Shown here: positions 25,110-42,117 of the stretch, piece after piece
Layout: each line of letters opens with the position of its first letter
Position numbering within the stretch: position 1 is the first letter of the stretch
Position numbers and translations under genes: made by a program
Source: Ruminococcus sp.
GTDB lineage: Bacteria; Bacillota; Clostridia; Oscillospirales; Acutalibacteraceae
Assembly (NCBI GenBank): GCA_023665555.1
Contig: JAMPDR010000002.1
Location: 2,837-66,836, forward strand
Length of the DNA: 64,000 nucleotides
Reading direction: 5' to 3'
The notes under the pieces: generated by a model
Database searches by the model: none
Told to the model about the DNA's origin: nothing
The model's input: only the letters and a program-made list of their open reading frames with translations

Positions 25110-25146
25110 CCCCCGGCTCGAAAGAGTCGGGGGATTTTGTCTATTT
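25110..25146 (+). terminator. Rho-independent terminator of the giant gene
   Basis: Hairpin CCCCCGGCTC-GAAA-GAGTCGGGGG followed by ATTTTGTCTATTT. Confidence 0.7.
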
Positions 25147-25152
25147 GCATAT

Positions 25153-25187
25153 AAAAAAGCCATCTGTTGAGTGACAGATGGCTTTTG
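25153..25187. terminator. Bidirectional terminator shared by the convergent giant gene and the TIR-LRR gene
   Basis: A-tract, then GCCATCTGT-TGAGTG-ACAGATGGC, then TTTTG. It lies between the two convergent stop codons at 25084 and 25206. Confidence 0.7.
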
Positions 25188-25205: not shown

Positions 25206-26948
25206 TTATAATTCTTCAAACGGATTGCCGTGTTTCATGGCATATTTATGAGCGCGTGAACCTTTAGGCGCAATGATTGTTGCTGTTTCAGGAATTCCAA
25301 TTCGTTTGACATTTAAGTCCCGATTGTATATTTTTATACGTTTCAAGCCCAATCCTTCAAAAAATGTATCTTTAGCAATAGTTGTAACACTAGCAGGGAT
25401 GATTATTTCTTTGAGGAGTGGACAACCCCAAAATGCCCATTTTTCAATAGTTGTAACATTGTCAGATATTTTTATGCTTGCAAGATTATAACAACCATTG
25501 AATGCAGACTCACGAATACTTGTAACGCCATTAGGTATGTTTATGCTTGTAAGACTTTGACAATTAAAAAATACAACTTTACCGATACTTGTAACACCAT
25601 TAGGTATGTTTATACTTGTGAGGCTTTGACAATTAAAAAATGCAAAATCGCCTATATTAGTAACGCTATCAGGCATGTTTATATTTATAAGATCAGTGCA
25701 ATCAGCAAATACTAAACTCTCAATACTAGTAACGTTATCAGGTATGTTTATACTTGTAAGGCTATTACAACCATTAAATGCAGACTCACCGATACTTGTA
25801 ACGCTATTAGGAATATTAATACTTTTAAGACTGGTGCATTTTTGAAATGCATGCCCGCCAATAACTGCAATGCTATCAGGGAGAGATACGCTGACAAGAT
25901 TACTACATTCACTAAAAGCGGAAGCACCGATACTTCCTACACCAAAATCGATTGTAACTTTTTTGATGTGTTGCCGCACATTGCGCCAAGATGGTGTAAC
26001 ATACATCCCACCGCGGCCGGTAATAACAAGTTCACCGTCCTCATAAAGTCCCCATTTAAGATTAGGACCGCAACTGCCTGTAGCGATAATTTTAATGACT
26101 TCTTCTTCAACTGTTTTTGGTGGTTCTTCTTTAGTTTCAGAAGGAGCATTTTCCTTTTCCATAGAAGAAGGTTCAGTGGCTTTCTCTTCCGCTTTATCAA
26201 TAGCAGTATCTTCAACTGAATTTTCAGTTTCTTCGATAATTTTATCAACGACAAAATTAATGATTTCTTCATCAACTATTTTAGGTGGTTCTTCTTTGGT
26301 TTCAGACGGAGCATTTTCCTTTTCTATAGAAGAAGGTTCTGTGAATTTTTCTTCCGTCTTTTCAGTATCGGTATCTTCAATAAGATTTGCAGACTCGTTA
26401 ATATTTTTATCAGTGACAAAATCAGTGATTTCTTCAACAACTTTCTTGTTATCAAGATTATCTTTCAGTTCAATTTTACTGTTAATATCATTTTTAATAG
26501 CATTTTCATCCTTTTTCGGCTCTGTAGTATCTTCCTTTTCAGTTACACCGGTATAAGCAATAACAGCCTGTAAAATCTTTCTGATTTCATCCGATGATTC
26601 ATCAACTTCACGCACTGGGATAATTTGCTTGTTGTGAATGTAAAAGAAAAATGAATCATTCAGCATGACATCTTCAAGCTGAACCGTTATTATTGATTTT
26701 CTGAAAGTGAGAGCAGCAAGTTCAACTTCGCTGTCAACGGCCTCTGATTCTTGGGAATCATTAGTCAACAATAAGACAAAGCAACTGCACTCTCTTATTG
26801 CTTTGGTGATAACAGCGGCATATTTATTTCCTGCGGGTATATCATACGGCGCCATCCATGTGTCAATTTTATTCTTTATAAATAGATTTCTTATAGCATC
26901 TGCCGATGCCTGATTCTTCGTACTGTAACTTATAAATGCATATCCCAT
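25206..26948 (-). CDS. TIR-domain protein fused to a K/E-rich repeat linker and a BspA-type leucine-rich-repeat (LRR_5-like) array. No signal peptide.
   Basis: N-terminus MGYAFISYSTKNQ...W...CFVLLLTNDSQES...EL fits the bacterial TIR pattern. C-terminal half contains GSCGPNLKWGLYEDGELVITG followed by at least 8 repeats of IP(D/N)(S/G)VTSIG(E/D)xAFxxCxSLTSINIP. Confidence 0.8.
   Translation of the reverse strand: MGYAFISYSTKNQASADAIRNLFIKNKIDTWMAPYDIPAGNKYAAVITKAIRECSCFVLLLTNDSQESEAVDSEVELAALTFRKSIITVQLEDVMLNDSFFFYIHNKQIIPVREVDESSDEIRKILQAVIAYTGVTEKEDTTEPKKDENAIKNDINSKIELKDNLDNKKVVEEITDFVTDKNINESANLIEDTDTEKTEEKFTEPSSIEKENAPSETKEEPPKIVDEEIINFVVDKIIEETENSVEDTAIDKAEEKATEPSSMEKENAPSETKEEPPKTVEEEVIKIIATGSCGPNLKWGLYEDGELVITGRGGMYVTPSWRNVRQHIKKVTIDFGVGSIGASAFSECSNLVSVSLPDSIAVIGGHAFQKCTSLKSINIPNSVTSIGESAFNGCNSLTSINIPDNVTSIESLVFADCTDLININMPDSVTNIGDFAFFNCQSLTSINIPNGVTSIGKVVFFNCQSLTSINIPNGVTSIRESAFNGCYNLASIKISDNVTTIEKWAFWGCPLLKEIIIPASVTTIAKDTFFEGLGLKRIKIYNRDLNVKRIGIPETATIIAPKGSRAHKYAMKHGNPFEEL
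26098..26460. repeat. Tandem duplication of about 180 bp (two copies) inside the TIR-LRR linker
   Basis: Near-identical DNA blocks encoding TEPSS(I/M)EKENAPSETKEEPPK(I/T)V(D/E)EE. Confidence 0.75.
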
Positions 26949-27180
26949 TTTTTATAATTCTCCTATTTTACTACTGTTAATTGTATTATATAATTATCGT
27001 TTTGTCAATAAAAGGTGATGTATAAGAAAAAATGTTCAGCAGTTTAACTTGTAAAAAAATACGCTGACACATTCTGTTGCTAATTAATCGTAAATATTGC
27101 CTGTCTATATAATATATAATTTGTAAAGTCGCGATAAATAGGGGGCATTAGAAAACCAATAAATTATCTTTAATATATAA

Positions 27181-36277: not shown

Positions 36278-36496
36278 ATGGCCGCAAGCTATAAAAAATT
36301 GTTCAAGCTTCTGATCGACCGTGACATGAAAAAGAAAGAACTCGCCGAAAAAGCTGGTATCAGTATTGCTACCATTACTAAAATGGGCAAGGACGGCGCC
36401 GCTGTCAGCAGTGATATTTTTGTAAAAATATGTACAGCGCTCGGATGCGCAATGGACGATATTGTGGAAATCATACCCGAGAAGGAGGAAAACTGA
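36278..36496 (+). CDS. HTH (XRE/Cro-type) controller protein of the R-M system
   Basis: MAASYKKLFKLLIDRDMKKKELAEKAGISIATITKMGKDG is an HTH domain. GAGG ribosome-binding site 9 nt upstream. Located directly upstream of the MTase. Confidence 0.7.
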   Translation: MAASYKKLFKLLIDRDMKKKELAEKAGISIATITKMGKDGAAVSSDIFVKICTALGCAMDDIVEIIPEKEEN

Positions 36497-36497
36497 A

Positions 36498-37565
36498 ATG
36501 AAAACATTTAAGTTAGGCGAATTGTTCTGCGGTCCCGGTGGAATTGCGTGTGGTGCACTGCGGGCAAAAAGCGATGATGGTTCCTTCACCATTGAGCATG
36601 CTTGGGCGAATGATTATGATGCAGACACATGTGAAACATATCGCAAGAACATCTGCCCCGAATCGCCCGAAACAGTACATTGTGGCGATGTGCGTGAATT
36701 AGATATTCAGAAGCTTGGAAAAATCACGGCCTTCTGCTATGGGTTTCCGTGCAACAGCTTCTCTAATGTTGGTAAACACCAAGGTTTTGAAAACGAGAAG
36801 TTTGGGCAACTCTACTGGTACGGTATCGAAGTGCTTAAAACATATCGCCCAAAGTGGTTTGTTGCAGAAAATGTATCAGGAATACGTTCTGCTGGTTCAG
36901 GTGATTTTGAAATAATCCTAAACGATATGCGAGCGGCTGGTTATAAATTGAACGTTCACCTATACAAAGCGGAAGAATATGGTGTTCCGCAAACAAGACA
37001 TAGAGTAATCATTGTTGGAATTCACGAGGATGAATCTGTGAAATACAGAGTTCCCGATCCTGCGGTGTATGCTAAGTGCGATGTAACCGCGAGAACCGCG
37101 TTGGCTAACATTCCTGATAATGCTCCCAACAATGAAGTAAGAAAACTCGCTGATAAGGTTGTTAGAAGACTGTCATATATTAAGCCCGGTGAAAATGTAT
37201 GGCAAGCAGAAGAAAGACTCGGTGAAGATTTCCCAGGCGAATTAAAAATCCATACAAAAACCAAGATCAGTCAAATCTATCGTAAACTTGATCCCGACAA
37301 GCCAGCCTATACTGTAACAGCAGCGGGTGGCGGTGGTACATTTATGTATCATTGGACAGATCGAGAACTGACAAACAGAGAAAGAGCTAGAATACAAACC
37401 TTCCCCGATTACTATGAGTTTGTAGGCAACTATAGCAGTGTGAGAAAACAGATCGGCATGGCTGTACCGTGCAAATTATCTGAAATCGTCATAACTGCTG
37501 TATTGAACGTCTTTGCAGGAATTGATTATCCTTGGATTAAAGCCAACTTGGAGGAAGATGAATGA
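36498..37565 (+). CDS. DNA (cytosine-5)-methyltransferase 1
   Basis: Motif I FCGPGG, motif IV GFPCNSFS, motif VI FVAENV, motif X RKQIGMAVP. GGAGG ribosome-binding site. Confidence 0.85.
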   Translation: MKTFKLGELFCGPGGIACGALRAKSDDGSFTIEHAWANDYDADTCETYRKNICPESPETVHCGDVRELDIQKLGKITAFCYGFPCNSFSNVGKHQGFENEKFGQLYWYGIEVLKTYRPKWFVAENVSGIRSAGSGDFEIILNDMRAAGYKLNVHLYKAEEYGVPQTRHRVIIVGIHEDESVKYRVPDPAVYAKCDVTARTALANIPDNAPNNEVRKLADKVVRRLSYIKPGENVWQAEERLGEDFPGELKIHTKTKISQIYRKLDPDKPAYTVTAAGGGGTFMYHWTDRELTNRERARIQTFPDYYEFVGNYSSVRKQIGMAVPCKLSEIVITAVLNVFAGIDYPWIKANLEEDE

Positions 37566-38641
37566 TTCCAAAAATTGATAAGATTACTGGAAATCCGACT
37601 TTTATTACGTCGGATTTCGATGAACCTGTTTTATATACGCCTGCGAGAACTGAGTTTTCGCAACCTTGTTCGTCTTTGAAGATTGTTACTGCTTTTACAG
37701 ATTGTGATCGAATATCGACGCATATGATCAAACTTGCGGAAGGCATGAAAAACAGCCGTCTGATTAAAGGTCTGTCGGTTGAAATCATACTTGGCATGAC
37801 CAAATCCAGCCTCTCTCAGAAAAAGCACGAAGATATCTGTCGTATGATTCGATTTCTTAATGCATCCAAAGGGATGCCAAAAATCTCTTGCAGATATATT
37901 TGCCAAGGTTCAGAAGTGCATTCGAAAGTGTATATTTGGACATCTCCAGATGAGCGTGTAGGAGATATGCCCTATATCGCTTTCTGTGGTTCTTTGAATT
38001 ATACTATGAACGCTTTTTACAAGCGCAGAGAGTCTGTCAGCATGTGTAACTCTCTTGAGGCGTATTGGTATTATAAGAATCTTCTGCCCGATACAATTGA
38101 TTGTTTTGATCCTTCAGTTTCTGAAAAATTGAAGAATGTTATCAACAATACAGCAGAAAATTTTGTTGAGCCAGATAACTCTGAAAAAGATTATCTCGTT
38201 TACGATAAGGAAACGCCAGTCGATACGCTCAATGTTTCTCTTTTGCGAGCGGACGGCAGTGATACAGGATACGGCTCGGGTATCAACTGGGGCATCCGTA
38301 AAAATGGAACGAAGCGCGATCAGAACCAAGCCTATATTCCGTATAATCATAAAGATAAAAAGGCAGGCTTTTTCCCAGATAGAGAGCATCCCGATGATGA
38401 AAACTGCCCGATGTTTAAGGTCATCACCAAAGATTTTGGCTCTTTCCATATGCGAATGGCACAGCAAGGCAACAAAGCTTTGCACAGCGTAGAAAGTAAC
38501 GCAATTTTGGGTGAATGGATTCGTAAAAGAATTGGTGCGCCTGCAGGCGGTTATGTTACTAAACAAATGCTGGAACTGTACGGAAAAACGTATGTTACTT
38601 TCAGAAAATATGATGATGGAACATATCTTTTGGATTTTTAA
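37562..38641 (+). CDS. Candidate restriction endonuclease (called by position only)
   Basis: 359-aa ORF translationally coupled to MTase 1 (ATGA overlap) and sandwiched between two m5C MTases. No motif recognisable by eye. Confidence 0.4.
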   Translation: MIPKIDKITGNPTFITSDFDEPVLYTPARTEFSQPCSSLKIVTAFTDCDRISTHMIKLAEGMKNSRLIKGLSVEIILGMTKSSLSQKKHEDICRMIRFLNASKGMPKISCRYICQGSEVHSKVYIWTSPDERVGDMPYIAFCGSLNYTMNAFYKRRESVSMCNSLEAYWYYKNLLPDTIDCFDPSVSEKLKNVINNTAENFVEPDNSEKDYLVYDKETPVDTLNVSLLRADGSDTGYGSGINWGIRKNGTKRDQNQAYIPYNHKDKKAGFFPDREHPDDENCPMFKVITKDFGSFHMRMAQQGNKALHSVESNAILGEWIRKRIGAPAGGYVTKQMLELYGKTYVTFRKYDDGTYLLDF

Positions 38642-38662
38642 TCTTTGAATGGGGGACAAGTT

Positions 38663-39604
38663 ATGCCGAGTGTATGTAGTTTGTTTAGCGGAATAGGTGG
38701 AATCGATCTTGGTTTTATACAAGCTGGATTCGACATCGCATGGGCAAATGAAATAGATGTCGCCGCTTGCAGAACCTATCGTCATAATTTTCCAAACGCC
38801 AATCTTATTGAAGGCGATATAAAGAGGATTTCAACTTCTGATATTCCAGACTTTGATGTGTTGACGGCAGGCTTTCCTTGCCAACCGTTTTCCATTGCAG
38901 GACTTCAAAAAGGATTTGAAGACCGAGACGGGAACTTGTTTTTTGAAATAACGAGAGTTATTGACGCTAAAAGACCGAAAGTGGTTTTCTTGGAAAATGT
39001 TCCGAACTTAATGGAACATAATGACGGCAAAACTTTTCTTGTAATATTCAACAGTTTAGCACAGTTTGGATACACCGTGTATTATAGAGTTCTTGCATCC
39101 AATGATTACGGTAATCTCCCGCAAATACGAAAGCGTATTTATATCGTTGCAATTCGTGAAGATATGGGCAATCGTCTATACCAATATCCAGAGCCGATAG
39201 AACTCACTTTGAAATCCAGTGACATTATCAATCGCTCTGCAAAGCAACACGACATTTATTACTACACAGAAGGCAAAATGTATGATCGATTAGTTGCACA
39301 CATGAAGGATCACAAAGCAATTTATAGAATAACTGACACAGAAGTACGCTGGACGAAGAATCAAATGTGTCCGACTCTTACCGCCAATATGGGAACACAC
39401 AAAGATAGAGTGCATGTTGTGTGGGACGATTACGGAATACGAAAGATTACATTGAGAGAAGGTCTGGACTTTCAAGGTTTTCCGAAAGAGTTTTATTTTC
39501 CGAATACAATAACTATTGATGATGCGTATAAGCAGATCGGAAACTCTGTTTGTGTACCTGTTATTAAAAGAATAGCGACTGAAATAAGGGAATTAGTAAC
39601 GTGA
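38663..39604 (+). CDS. DNA (cytosine-5)-methyltransferase 2
   Basis: Motif I LFSGIGG, motif IV GFPCQPFSIAG, motif VI VVFLENVPNL, motif X KQIGNSVCVP. An alternative ATG at 38645 is possible. Confidence 0.85.
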   Translation: MPSVCSLFSGIGGIDLGFIQAGFDIAWANEIDVAACRTYRHNFPNANLIEGDIKRISTSDIPDFDVLTAGFPCQPFSIAGLQKGFEDRDGNLFFEITRVIDAKRPKVVFLENVPNLMEHNDGKTFLVIFNSLAQFGYTVYYRVLASNDYGNLPQIRKRIYIVAIREDMGNRLYQYPEPIELTLKSSDIINRSAKQHDIYYYTEGKMYDRLVAHMKDHKAIYRITDTEVRWTKNQMCPTLTANMGTHKDRVHVVWDDYGIRKITLREGLDFQGFPKEFYFPNTITIDDAYKQIGNSVCVPVIKRIATEIRELVT

Positions 39605-40535: not shown

Positions 40536-41264
40536 TTAGTTGAGAGGTTCAGTTACTTCAAGTCCGCCGACGAATACCACCTTTATCGTTTCTTTGGATT
40601 CTACGATTACGCATTCAAGTATCTGTCGGATGATTTGGTTGTCATAAGTCATCGGATGATTTTTCAGTCCGTCGAGTATGGTATAAATCTCATCGAGCCG
40701 GGACTTTGCATTTTCACGCTTTTGTCTGGAAGCGCCGATTTGTTCAAGCTGTCCGAGCAGCTTGTTTTTTTCGTTCATAAGTTCTGTTGCTTTGCTATCG
40801 TCGAAGGTATCGGCCGCCTGTGCGGATACCGCTTGCAGCATGGCTTTGAATTCTGCGTCGATCTCAGCGATCCGTATTTGTATGTCGAGACTTTTATCCT
40901 CTGTTTCTTCGGTGTCAAGTCCCATACCGATGTGCAGTTTAAGAGTTTTCAGCACCTCGGTGTTTTGCTTGCATTTCTTGATCATCTTGTTGAATTCATC
41001 GCGCTTTTTGATGCTTGTTCCGGTGATTCCCTTATCGGCATAGATTCCGACCAGCGTCCATTTCGGTTCGCTTTGAATTCGCTCGGTGTAGTGCTTGACC
41101 TGTACTTCGTAGCTGTTAAGCTGTTCTTCCTGCTTGGTGGACATGCGGCAGTAAGCCGCTACCCGAAGCTGTCGGTATTCTTTCTTTAGCTGCTTGGCTG
41201 TGTCAATAGTCGGCTGTATTTTGCGTACTATTTTCGCAGGCTGTTGTACTGCTGTTGATTCCAT
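40536..41264 (-). pseudogene. Large serine recombinase remnant (catalytic-domain N-terminus joined to coiled-coil/C-terminal tail, internal deletion)
   Basis: [22 protein letters not shown]...YADKGITG is the resolvase catalytic N-terminus. It then jumps to a coiled-coil and a typical tail ...[26 protein letters not shown]. The rest of the catalytic domain and the recombinase domain are missing. Confidence 0.6.
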
Positions 41265-42117
41265 CGCTTTGCTCCTTTCCGATTTGCTGACCGTTTGTTA
41301 ATGTAAGGATAACCGAGCCGTTCTCGCAGAGCCGAAGCTCGCTGACGGTTCTGCCGAATAGCTCGCCTGAAAAATCGGAAAGCGGACTCGCATTTGCAAA
41401 GTCCGCTTTCAATCGCTTGGCTATATACACTGCATTGTCAATGTTCTCATATTTGAGAGAGACACTCTGCAGCAGTTGTTTTCTTAATGTTTCCTTTTGG
41501 ATGGAGTAGCCTTCGAGGGTTCTGCCGATCTCGTTATTCATCCTGCGAAGCTCTGTGCTTGGTTCCTGCACTGCGGGATTTGGTATGTGTATTCCTTCAG
41601 ATTCGGCAATGACTCTATTCAGAAGCTCGGTGATCGCTCTGAGCAGTTCTTCATCAGATACGGCAATCAGCTTCCGGCAGTCATCCTTTTTGCAAATCCA
41701 TCGCTGACCGCTTTTAACTCGTCTGTCACTGCGGCGATGCATTTCACTTCCGCAGACAGGGCATCTGACGAGTACGGTGATCTGAAAGATATCCGCTTTC
41801 CGATCTACACTTTTCTGCGTGTTTCGCGCATCTTTGATTTCCTGAACGGCGTCATATGTTTCCTGTGTGATGATTGCAGGATAGGTGTCGTTTCCGAGAT
41901 ACCGTTCATTTTCAAGAATATGCTTGAGCCTCGCTTTGTTCCATCCGATGATGCCGGGCATGAATTCGATGCTTTGTGCGTTGAGTTCGGCTGCGATATT
42001 CAGCAGGGACTTGCCCGATAAGTAGCTGTCGTAAATCTCTGTGACGATTGTCTGCTCCTGCGGTTGAATGGCTATGTTGCCTTTTTCGAAGCAGTATCCG
42101 TATGGCAGGTTCTTCAC
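41203..42117 (-). pseudogene. Large serine recombinase remnant (recombinase domain, zinc ribbon, coiled-coil and tail; no catalytic domain). GTG start.
   Basis: PYGYCFEKGNIAIQPQEQ...GKSL..IA..LN recombinase domain. RCPVCGSEMHRR...WICKKDDC zinc ribbon. C-terminal tail ...[16 protein letters not shown]. Upstream, in another frame, lies an excisionase-like HTH start MEYISVSEASEQWNVTKRWVQRLCEE (42187). Confidence 0.6.

Follow-up and report, generated by a model that had tools for sequence, protein, structure and literature searches.

The window, i.e. the whole 64,000-nucleotide stretch of DNA analysed here, contains at 25206..26948 of the minus strand a complete gene encoding a soluble protein of 580 aa (plus stop), in which an N-terminal TIR domain, an acidic linker and an array of BspA-type leucine-rich repeats (LRRs) follow one another. 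The gene was delimited from the list of open reading frames, and significant matches to Pfam TIR_2 and LRR_5 in its product bore out the preliminary description, which had placed a TIR domain and an LRR array on one reading frame and had proposed a HMMER comparison with these two families. We hold with middling confidence that the product is a stand-alone cytoplasmic protein combining an LRR sensor with a TIR effector, which lacks an NTPase, would hydrolyse NAD+ and has its closest counterpart in the E. coli TIR-II system.

The protein is identical to the NCBI entry MCM1363507.1, labelled 'leucine-rich repeat protein', and was found on three independent MAG contigs (MCM1363507.1, MCM1391313.1, and MCM1484867.1), so the gene is not an assembly chimera. 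Only these three MAGs carry the exact gene, and the exact product of the neighboring DUF5131 gene is present on the same three contigs and on no others. A ribosome-binding site (AGGAG, 26960..26964, minus strand) was read from the sequence 11 nt 5′ of the ATG. A consensus scan of the 232-bp gap that follows the upstream MFS gene revealed a promoter-like site, TTGACA-17-TACAAT (26980..27008, minus strand), with 11 of 12 positions matched; the match is to the consensus alone, and sites of this kind are no more numerous than expected from shuffles. At the other end, RNA folding located an intrinsic-terminator hairpin with a 13-bp stem followed by a U-tract (25155..25186, minus strand), with a folding energy of −18.9 kcal/mol (z=−6.05) that none of 200 shuffles equaled. 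This hairpin is symmetric and could act on the plus strand too. With its own promoter-like site and its own terminator, the gene appears to be monocistronic. A bidirectional terminator had been proposed as common to this gene and the convergent giant gene; terminators are indeed present between the genes, but as two hairpins instead of one, that of the giant gene lying at 25110-25133 on the plus strand. Furthermore, no adjoining TIR or LRR gene was found in the 23 loci carrying homologs of the giant gene. A functional tie between both genes was rejected on these two grounds, and their pairing is therefore incidental.

The TIR domain comprises aa 1-135 (26544..26948, minus strand), as delimited by the TIR_2 match, the AF2 model, and Foldseek. 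Pfam TIR_2, of the STIR clan, was matched at aa 5-125 (E=1.3e-14, 55.2 bits vs a cutoff of 28), with 120 of the 122 profile positions covered, and a marginal match to ThsB_TIR was also obtained (23.9 bits vs a cutoff of 21.2). Every motif named in the preliminary description as part of a TIR pattern was located: FISYS at aa 5-9, the conserved tryptophan (W31), the CFVLLLT strand at aa 56-62, and the S68..E74 helix. The AF2 model of the domain (pLDDT 90.3) shows five strands and five helices in alternating beta/alpha order, a flavodoxin-like five-strand TIR fold superimposable on solved TIR domains. A Foldseek search with this model returned 91 matches in the PDB at E≤1e-3, the 50 listed all being TIR domains; the top ones were the TIRs of SPARTA (first), AbTir, SARM1, MAL, RPS4, and SpbK, with TMq values of 0.7-0.76, and the adaptor TIRs MAL and MyD88 were both among the structural neighbors. 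A PDB search with the single TIR-domain sequence gave no match, alignment with PDB entries requiring a family profile. The matches to PADLOC models were partial and restricted to this domain, the best being SAVED_TIR (1.9e-9), along with a weak match to ThsB.

Relatives of the TIR cassette were collected through an exhaustive HMMER search, which yielded 143 representatives, all of them from gut or rumen Clostridia. The predicted catalytic glutamate, Glu74 of the alpha-C region (codon 26727..26729, minus strand), is invariant in alignments A1, A2, and A3 and in all 143 representatives, whereas its loss in homologs had been named in the preliminary description as a refuting result, and the family profile aligns it with SARM1 E642 (in the SARM1/TIR-1 'WVHKE' motif) and with the Glu of the Cat1 'WCWDE' motif. 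S68 is likewise invariant, and the BB-loop motif D36-I-P-A-G40 is conserved across the same set. The invariance of these elements in 143 diverged representatives suggests that catalysis has been retained. On the other hand, the window protein lacks the aromatic WxxxE residue: the family alignment places Ala70 (codon 26739..26741, minus strand) at this position, which is Trp in 90-95 of the 143 representatives and Ala in 38, the window protein belonging to the Ala subclade. The Trp of WxxxE stacks on NAD+ and is required for ADPR cyclization, and an aromatic residue occupies this position in all the cyclase TIRs examined (bioRxiv 10.1101/2022.05.07.491051). Replacement of this Trp by Ala abolishes or greatly reduces cyclization and lowers NADase activity, activity being weakened in the AbTir and SARM1 mutants and lost in the L6 and ROQ1 ones (bioRxiv 10.1101/2022.05.07.491051). 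Since the aromatic residue is replaced by Ala70, production of a cADPR isomer or v-cADPR, as contemplated in the preliminary description, is unlikely; judging from the sequence, the substitution argues for plain NAD+ hydrolysis or for weak activity, and it may even mean that NADase activity is low or zero.

The TIR domain is followed by an acidic linker rich in Lys, Pro, and Thr (aa 136-285; 26094..26543, minus strand), with a net charge of −28, which was assigned as disordered from AF2 and composition. AF2 pLDDT values fall below 50 at aa 141-224 and 246-273, and a Pfam scan of aa 136-285 gave no match. Tandem Repeats Finder detected in its DNA a 165-bp (55-aa) tandem duplication (26092..26442; 2.1 copies, 83% matches), two copies of which are visible at the protein level. 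No NTPase family was found in the 580-aa protein in Pfam, NCBIfam, and PADLOC scans, and AF2 predicts disorder between both domains, in line with the earlier view that the NTPase module is missing.

The C-terminal half matches Pfam LRR_5 with E=3e-64 and 215 bits. It starts with an N-terminal cap (aa 286-327, GSCGPNLKWGLYEDGELVITGRGGM...; 25968..26093, minus strand), modeled by AF2 as a beta-hairpin with pLDDT of about 70-90, and continues with nine in-phase BspA-type units of 23 aa (aa 328-534; 25347..25967, minus strand), defined by the LRR_5 match, unit delineation, and AF2. A degenerate tenth unit and a C-terminal cap (aa 535-580), with the stop codon, complete the gene (25206..25346, minus strand), as read from the sequence and from the terminal strand and the helix at 565-572 of the AF2 model. 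The earlier count of at least eight repeats of about 23 aa is thus refined to nine phased units plus a degenerate tenth one and caps. The solenoid was modeled with pLDDT above 90. In the DNA of the array, a period of 69 bp is repeated 4.8 times, and units 3 and 7 are identical in 18 of 23 residues; these near-identical units, together with the linker duplication, point to recent repeat turnover in place. A match to the NCBIfam HupY/LrrG model was partial (92 bits vs an equivalog cutoff of 1250).

Several observations indicate a cytoplasmic location. The ATG at 26948 is preceded two codons 5′ by an in-frame TAA, which rules out a longer N-terminus, and the beta-A strand of the TIR domain begins at the protein start with no hydrophobic N-terminus, in agreement with the signal peptide having been described as absent. 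No TM helix was found in the 580-aa protein, whose maximum 19-residue Kyte-Doolittle hydropathy is 1.47, and neither the window protein nor 19 TIR-LRR relatives contain a signal peptide, a sortase motif, or a wall anchor. These relatives also lack TM helices and nearly all of them have the TIR domain from residue 1; cytoplasmic topology is therefore a property of the family, which speaks against a surface protein with a mis-called start. A topology like that of Toll-like receptors, in which a TM helix separates TIR from LRR, was rejected, as no such helix exists in the window protein or in the 19 relatives.

LRR_5 is the commonest partner among the nearest TIR relatives: TIRs 50-79% identical to that of the window protein are joined to LRR_5 in 24 of the 143 representatives, those checked being also soluble, to Sel1 in 14, FtsK in 10, and Pkinase in 8, and also to TPR, MORN, RCC1, and further domains. 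Further fusions of the cassette involve a DnaA-type ATPase, EF-Tu domain 2, S1, and a Ser/Thr kinase, and LRR fusions are present in both the Trp and the Ala subclades; one is encoded at locus L068 of Bariatricus sp. A word-indexed search with the TIR alone, which retrieved short proteins only, had suggested that the TIR-LRR fusion was unique, an idea refuted by the exhaustive HMMER search. From these sequences, the TIR module is best regarded as a shuffled N-terminal cassette, and one effector combined with variable sensors is a modular pattern typical of immune proteins. When full-length homologs were searched, a set dominated by LRR_5 proteins, a TIR partner appeared only in the identical protein. 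Among the 119 closest LRR relatives, 67 had an N-terminal hydrophobic region, in keeping with the statement that such arrays are usually found on secreted proteins; however, about 35 are soluble Pkinase-LRR_5 proteins, without signal peptide or TM helix, which are the closest soluble LRR relatives and carry a kinase that hits the STK_OB model of PADLOC (2.3e-51). Some full-length LRR homologs are fused to dockerin, SLH, or Fn3. No homolog of the TIR module was found in phage and plasmid collections.

The genomic context was analyzed both in the window and across related loci. The neighbors in the window are housekeeping genes (MFS, DUF5131, alkaline phosphatase, SDR, OYE-type oxidoreductase, and GlyRS), and the defense module closest to the gene is a type II restriction-modification system at 9.5 kb. 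Within 10 kb, neither a ThsA-type gene (SIR2, Macro, or SLOG) nor any other gene that might supply an effector is present. Among 135 flanking genes from 79 related loci, scanned with Pfam and PADLOC without a background control, no clear defense-island enrichment was seen: few flanking genes match PADLOC models and the majority are ordinary metabolic genes. The neighborhood check suggested in the preliminary description thus came out negative in the window and weak across the related loci. The most frequent immediate neighbor of the relatives is another TIR (8 of 135), and tandem TIR arrays occur in some of them, with four TIR genes in loci L005 and L081 and three in L052, from the cultured Brotomerdimonas butyrica; a local phmmer search undercounts these paralogs, retrieving two of the four Pfam-marked TIR genes in L005. 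L005 also encodes a DUF4062-STAND protein and a protein resembling the Card1 endonuclease, and contains small RyR and DUF1292 genes. The gene for another TIR-LRR protein, P0203, is followed 19 nt downstream by a NUDIX gene. Apart from the TIR arrays of some relatives, genomic context gives little support for a role in defense.

Among characterized systems, the E. coli TIR-II proteins (TIR plus TPR) are a validated single-protein anti-phage system that needs the TIR active-site residues, and they are mostly devoid of NTPase, an ATPase being present in only about 30% of them (PMC11350192). The window protein resembles them in having a TIR and a superhelical repeat domain on one polypeptide and no NTPase, and its gene is apparently monocistronic. 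The repeat type differs: TIR-II, from Proteobacteria and experimentally validated, carries TPRs, whereas the window protein carries BspA LRR_5 repeats, lacks the WxxxE Trp, and is known from sequence. According to the E. coli TIR survey (PMC11350192, Nat Commun 2024), bacterial TIR systems seem to be devoid of LRR features. None of the papers found describes a bacterial TIR-BspA-LRR protein, and literature searches on bacterial or phage TIR-LRR, PF13676 with PF13306, PDB 9M0N, and STK_OB gave nothing relevant. The assertion that this is not a described defense architecture therefore stands for the TIR-BspA-LRR combination, but not for the NTPase-less TIR-plus-repeat logic, which is already known: since TIR-II has been validated, the sensor-effector logic is not new, and what is new here is LRR_5 as the putative sensor on a TIR.

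Similarities extend to eukaryotic and other bacterial receptors. Plant TNLs and bacterial STAND proteins (Avs, bNACHT) are also cytoplasmic, with an N-terminal TIR effector and a C-terminal LRR or repeat sensor, and induced TIR proximity is the activation logic expected in both cases; they contain, however, an NB-ARC, NACHT, or STAND NTPase where the window protein has its acidic, disordered linker (about 150 aa), and the LRR of the latter belongs to the 23-aa BspA type and not to that of plant or RI-like LRRs. Animal Toll-like receptors likewise join LRR and TIR with no NTPase, but in the order signal peptide, LRR ectodomain, TM, and cytoplasmic TIR, and they act as scaffolds, whereas the window protein is soluble, has the order TIR-linker-LRR, and keeps the catalytic Glu. 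The TIR fold is homologous, and the catalytic Glu conserved, in Thoeris ThsB, TIR-STING, TIR-SAVED, and SPARTA TIR-APAZ; the window protein differs from them in lacking a ThsA partner as well as a STING, SAVED, or APAZ/Ago sensor, and in having Ala70, from which no cyclase activity is expected. The Pkinase-LRR_5 proteins encoded by gut Clostridia, among them P0072 (760 aa), are similarly soluble, with an N-terminal enzyme and a C-terminal BspA LRR up to 58% identical to that of the window protein, but with a Ser/Thr kinase as effector in place of TIR. Finally, the BspA, LrrA, and HupY adhesins have the LRR_5 repeat family in common with the window protein, which lacks a secretion signal or anchor and bears an N-terminal TIR.

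Altogether, we infer that the LRR array acts as a sensor, that activation occurs through oligomerization, that the protein has enzymatic activity, and that its role is directed against phages or mobile elements. The BspA-type solenoid would be the putative ligand-binding part, most likely for an invader or stress-associated protein, and the long disordered acidic tether would let TIR and LRR move independently. Ligand binding would gather the TIRs into an oligomer, completing a composite active site around Glu74, by analogy with every characterized enzymatic TIR. The assembled TIRs would then hydrolyze NAD+ to ADP-ribose and nicotinamide, plain hydrolysis being expected because the WxxxE Trp is Ala, and NAD+ depletion would lead to growth arrest or abortive infection with no cyclic-ADPR-isomer second messenger.

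Other explanations were considered. A non-enzymatic scaffold or housekeeping regulator, in which the TIR would serve as an oligomerization or adaptor module (cf. MyD88 and MAL) in a Clostridia-specific process unrelated to conflict, is unlikely. Ala70 weakens the NAD+-binding pocket, the adaptor TIRs are among the structural neighbors, most genes nearby are housekeeping ones with few defense matches, and the FtsK, DnaA-type ATPase, and kinase partners could indicate cell-cycle roles; these points are countered by the strict invariance of the catalytic Glu, S68, and the BB-loop motif, and by the partner promiscuity, tandem paralog arrays, and patchy distribution typical of conflict genes rather than of core regulators. 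A Thoeris-like signal generator, whose LRR would sense infection and whose TIR would make a cADPR isomer or related messenger for a separately encoded effector, we regard as highly improbable: the marginal ThsB_TIR match, the weak PADLOC hits to ThsB and SAVED_TIR, the Card1-endonuclease-like, RyR, and DUF1292 genes beside the TIR genes of L005, and the NUDIX gene next to P0203 would fit it, but the aromatic residue common to the cyclase TIRs examined is missing, no effector candidate lies within 10 kb, and the gene is apparently transcribed on its own.

We find it equally hard to credit a factor directed at the host or at neighboring cells, in the manner of Tcp-type TIR virulence proteins or of BspA adhesins, which would leave the cell through lysis or non-classical export so that the LRR binds a host or bacterial surface and the TIR disrupts host TIR signaling or NAD+. 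BspA-type LRRs are classically surface adhesins. Such a role would accord with this, with the secreted appearance of the 67 LRR relatives and the dockerin, SLH, and Fn3 fusions, with the gut origin of the organism, and with a giant neighboring protein that could be a surface protein. Nevertheless, export and anchoring signals are absent here and in the 19 relatives, the cassette is fused to intracellular modules (DnaA-type ATPase, FtsK motor, EF-Tu domain 2, S1, and kinase), and proximity to the giant gene is not conserved.

A broader hypothesis, which is possible although we lean against it, is that gut Clostridia have recruited adhesin BspA LRRs as interchangeable intracellular pattern-recognition modules on at least two classes of effector, TIR and STK_OB-like Ser/Thr kinase, forming NTPase-less innate immune receptors akin to TLRs and NLRs, and that the housekeeping-domain copies joined to some TIRs (DnaA-type ATPase, FtsK, EF-Tu domain 2, and S1) serve as baits for phage proteins in the style of integrated decoys. 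If the stand-alone sensor-effector reading holds true, the window protein would be a bacterial immune receptor built from the two parts of animal Toll-like receptors, in the opposite order, in a soluble protein, and with enzymatic activity retained. The lack of the NTPase switch present in plant TNLs and in Avs/NLR-like proteins would mean that an LRR can gate a TIR directly, and the sensor repertoire of bacterial TIR systems would be extended to LRRs. The natural Trp-to-Ala change at WxxxE provides a ready test of the role of this residue in TIR product specificity. Furthermore, a large unstudied family of uncultured gut and rumen Clostridia, in which TIR is combined with LRR_5, Sel1, FtsK, kinase, and other domains, would be opened to study.

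Search of the 580-aa product of the ORF at 25206-26948 (minus strand) against Pfam-A placed it in both the TIR_2 and LRR_5 domain families, with TIR_2 at residues 5-125 (E=1.3e-14; 55.2 bits vs a gathering cutoff of 28) and a very strong match to BspA-type LRR_5 (E=3e-64, 215 bits). The match to ThsB_TIR was marginal (23.9 bits vs a cutoff of 21.2), PADLOC gave only partial matches restricted to the TIR domain (SAVED_TIR, 1.9e-9; ThsB, 3e-4), and a partial match to NCBIfam HupY/LrrG (92 bits) did not approach the equivalog cutoff of 1250. Three MAG contigs, labelled Faecalibacterium sp. or Ruminococcus sp., carry the identical protein (MCM1363507.1, MCM1391313.1 and MCM1484867.1) under no name other than 'leucine-rich repeat protein', indicating that the TIR-LRR_5 fusion put forward in the preliminary description is not an assembly artefact.

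The start codon of the gene is judged secure from the sequence, with an in-frame TAA two codons 5′ of it and an AGGAG motif 11 nt upstream. This start places the TIR beta-A strand (MGYAFISYS) at the N-terminus, which makes a signal peptide impossible, and the highest 19-residue hydropathy value was 1.47, so no transmembrane helix is present; the soluble topology initially proposed was therefore upheld. The LRR array consists of nine in-phase 23-aa units (residues 328-534), followed by a degenerate tenth unit and bounded by N- and C-caps, with a 69-bp period in the corresponding DNA. Both domains are joined by a linker of ca. 150 aa, rich in Glu, Lys, Pro and Thr (net charge −28), within which a stretch of 165 bp is tandemly duplicated (2.1 copies, 83% matches). 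In the full-length AlphaFold2 model, residues 1-135 and 285-580 were mostly above pLDDT 90, and the linker was predicted to be disordered (pLDDT below 50 at residues 141-224 and 246-273). The isolated TIR domain was modelled with a pLDDT of 90.3, and all 50 matches listed by Foldseek against the PDB were TIR domains (TMq 0.7-0.76), including SPARTA TIR-APAZ, Hydra TRR-2, MAL, AbTir, RPS4, SARM1 and SpbK.

Alignment of TIR representatives revealed that residues E74 and S68 are invariant (143/143) and that the BB-loop motif D-I-P-x-G is conserved. The family profile aligns E74 with the catalytic Glu of SARM1/TIR-1 (WVHKE) and Cat1 (WCWDE), which is thus retained in all of these representatives. 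The Trp position of the WxxxE motif, four residues before E74, is occupied by Trp in 90-95 of the 143 relatives and by Ala in 38 of them, as it is in the window protein (Ala70). Replacement of this Trp by Ala lowers the NADase activity of AbTir (W204A) and its 2′cADPR output from 93% to 24%, makes SARM1 (W638A) less active than the wild type, and inactivates L6 (W131A) and ROQ1 (W82A) (Manik et al., bioRxiv 10.1101/2022.05.07.491051). Given Ala70 and this loss of cyclisation or activity in the mutants, the TIR domain is predicted by homology to yield ADPR and nicotinamide, or to be a weak enzyme, and not to produce a cADPR-isomer signal, so that the cyclic-ADPR signalling suggested at first was not supported.

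A full-length homologue search was dominated by LRR_5 proteins, and a word-indexed search with the TIR domain retrieved only short TIR proteins. An exhaustive HMMER search of 1.84 billion cluster representatives with residues 1-140 recovered 10,775 proteins at a threshold of E<=1e-3, of which 303 reached E<=1e-30. Pfam scanning of 143 of the best 150 representatives, with TIRs mostly 50-79% identical to that of the window protein, showed LRR_5 to be the commonest partner (24/143), followed by Sel1 (14), FtsK/SpoIIIE (10) and Pkinase (8), and further by TPR, DnaA-type ATPase (6), MORN (5), DUF6273, RCC1, S1 and FHA. The closest TIRs (73-79% identity) were joined to DnaA-ATPase plus FtsK, Pkinase, EF-Tu domain 2, TPR, RCC1, MORN or a second TIR. 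This variety of partners, together with the frequency of LRR_5 among them, indicates that the TIR is a mobile N-terminal cassette and that the TIR-LRR_5 architecture is recurrent rather than unique. No transmembrane helix between TIR and LRR was found in any of 19 locally delimited TIR-LRR representatives, and the TIR begins at residue 1 in nearly all of them; the signal peptides on homologues that the preliminary description named as a counter-indication were therefore not borne out. Relatives were located at 79 genome loci, nearly all of them in MAGs and every one in Clostridia of the gut or rumen (Oscillospiraceae, Acutalibacteraceae, Ruminococcus, Lachnospiraceae); no homologues of the TIR module were found in the phage and plasmid collections searched.

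Five homologues (P0183, P0185, P0188, P0192 and P0197), among other representatives, carry near-identical TIR cassettes (73-79% identity) on copies of housekeeping-type domains, namely DnaA-type ATPase plus FtsK, FtsK alpha and motor domains, EF-Tu domain 2 and Ser/Thr kinase; S1 and FHA occur in more distant members. By analogy, such fusions resemble integrated-decoy baits. Another relative, the 182-aa protein P0146 (11 member sequences; 38 kb for the longest contig), has a C-terminal end, ...ISWELLSDGRLYIKGAEN, that resembles the first residues of a BspA N-terminal cap; truncation or a frameshift of a TIR-LRR gene may account for it. The 966-aa LRR_5 protein P0097 starts with MYNIFLCYRR, shows a weak ThsB/TIR-like PADLOC match (3.7e-4) and may represent a second, independent joining of a TIR-like domain to LRR_5.

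Regarding the LRR half, 67 of its 119 closest relatives have an N-terminal hydrophobic region, and many LRR relatives bear dockerin, SLH, Fn3 or cell-wall-binding domains, features indicating secretion. About 35 of the 119 are Pkinase-LRR_5 proteins of 760-1000 aa with neither signal peptide nor transmembrane helix, including the LRRs most similar to those of the window protein (up to 58% identity), so BspA-type arrays are not confined to the surface in these bacteria. These soluble proteins (P0072 and ca. 35 similar ones) start with MQYPLISEY, and the kinase half of P0072 matches the PADLOC model STK_OB (2.3e-51). They appear to be a kinase counterpart of TIR-LRR_5, and the window protein belongs with them among soluble proteins that pair an N-terminal enzyme with a C-terminal LRR_5 array.

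On one side, the TIR-LRR_5 gene faces a convergent giant gene (50-25084, plus strand, running past the window start). The window holds 8344 aa of the giant product, for which JAMPBD010000005.1 gives 9305 aa; it has no Pfam match on record and is made of long, internally repeated modules. The 121-bp gap between the genes contains not the bidirectional terminator originally described but two separate hairpins, one directly 3′ of the giant gene (25110-25133, plus strand) and one terminating the TIR-LRR_5 gene (25155-25186, minus strand; 13-bp stem followed by a U-tract; −18.9 kcal/mol, z=−6). Human-gut metagenomes contain homologues of the C-terminal 400 aa of the giant protein (26-39% identity), most of them about 1800-2500 aa in length. 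None of 23 metagenomic loci with such homologues contained a TIR or LRR gene, so pairing with the giant gene is not conserved and its relevance is unsupported. Beyond the opposite end of the TIR-LRR_5 gene are genes for an MFS transporter, DUF5131, alkaline phosphatase, SDR, an OYE-type oxidoreductase and GlyRS. Starting ca. 9.5 kb from the TIR-LRR_5 gene are a type II restriction-modification module (36462-39604, plus strand), in which two C5 cytosine methylases flank an NgoFVII-like PLD endonuclease, and, after it, a serine recombinase divided between two ORFs that overlap (40536-42117, minus strand; resolvase N-terminal domain, then recombinase and zinc ribbon). The recombinase probably represents the frameshifted remains of a mobile element, and AT skew is strongly negative (−0.26) at 40-42 kb, coinciding with it. 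Judged by gene content, these surroundings are not a clear defence island.

Among 135 genes immediately flanking relatives, the commonest family was TIR_2 (8), then DJ-1/PfpI (5), the rest belonging to diverse housekeeping-type families; only a handful matched PADLOC models at E<=1e-8. These counts, which lack a background control, argue weakly against association with defence islands, and the island context that the preliminary description proposed to check was not borne out. Individual neighbourhoods of the relatives are mixed in character. Low-sensitivity phmmer detected two to four tandem TIR genes at at least 10 of the 79 loci and a nearby RyR gene at at least seven, one fused to TIR (L088 6984-7772). 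TIR paralogues are dense among conflict-type genes in an array of eight same-strand genes (L005; 1-12047 of Logan ERR13971336_2060), which holds homologue P0195 and encodes a Card1-endonuclease-like protein (1011 aa), RyR (92 aa), TIR (400 aa), DUF1292 (99 aa), TIR (270 aa), a DUF4062-STAND NTPase (777 aa) and two TIR-LRR_5 proteins (614 and 715 aa). RyR proteins of about 90-100 aa recur directly 5′ of TIR-clade genes (L008, 250-543; L009, 146-451; L029, L047, L052, L060, L082), and homologue P0260 is encoded immediately 3′ of a small RyR-domain gene. Small DUF1292 genes likewise recur beside TIR-clade genes (L005, L029, L047, L048), and P0152 combines DUF1292 and TIR in one protein. Both small proteins may be regulators or partners. 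The gene for homologue P0238 comes after four large unannotated genes. That for TIR-LRR_5 protein P0203 is surrounded by small metabolic enzymes, with a NUDIX hydrolase gene 19 nt 3′ on the same strand (L002, 10008-10472) and a second NUDIX 2 kb upstream (L002/L003/L004/L012, GCA_017531765.1). Because ADP-ribose-type molecules are NUDIX substrates, the adjacent enzyme may be functionally tied to the TIR product.

The closest validated precedent is E. coli TIR-II, a single TIR-TPR protein whose defence requires the TIR active site and in whose family only about 30% of members have an ATPase (PMC11350192). The window protein is not a TLR (reversed domain order, solubility), an NLR or STAND protein (no NTPase), a Thoeris ThsB (no ThsA partner within 10 kb, position 70 not aromatic) or a BspA-type adhesin (no export signal). 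The searchable literature yielded no account of a bacterial TIR-BspA-LRR protein, in line with its initial presentation as an undescribed architecture, and LRR features seem absent from bacterial TIR systems according to an E. coli survey (PMC11350192). Overall, what the preliminary description observed is confirmed, and its interpretation is supported in part.

The best-supported reading, drawn from homology, is that of a single-protein cytoplasmic sensor-effector, in which the LRR solenoid would bind a ligand and, through the flexible acidic tether to the TIR, ligand-driven clustering would assemble a composite TIR active site able to hydrolyse NAD+; we infer an anti-phage role as well. Ala70 and the housekeeping neighbours would also suit a non-enzymatic scaffold or housekeeping regulator, which we regard as unlikely. 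A Thoeris-like signal generator is a still poorer candidate, with both Ala70 and the lack of a partner effector against it, and it seems equally improbable that the protein is released to act on the host or neighbouring cells, since export signals are absent and the TIR cassette is also fused to clearly intracellular domains. TIR-LRR_5 proteins form a real, recurrent and uncharacterised family that is readily testable.
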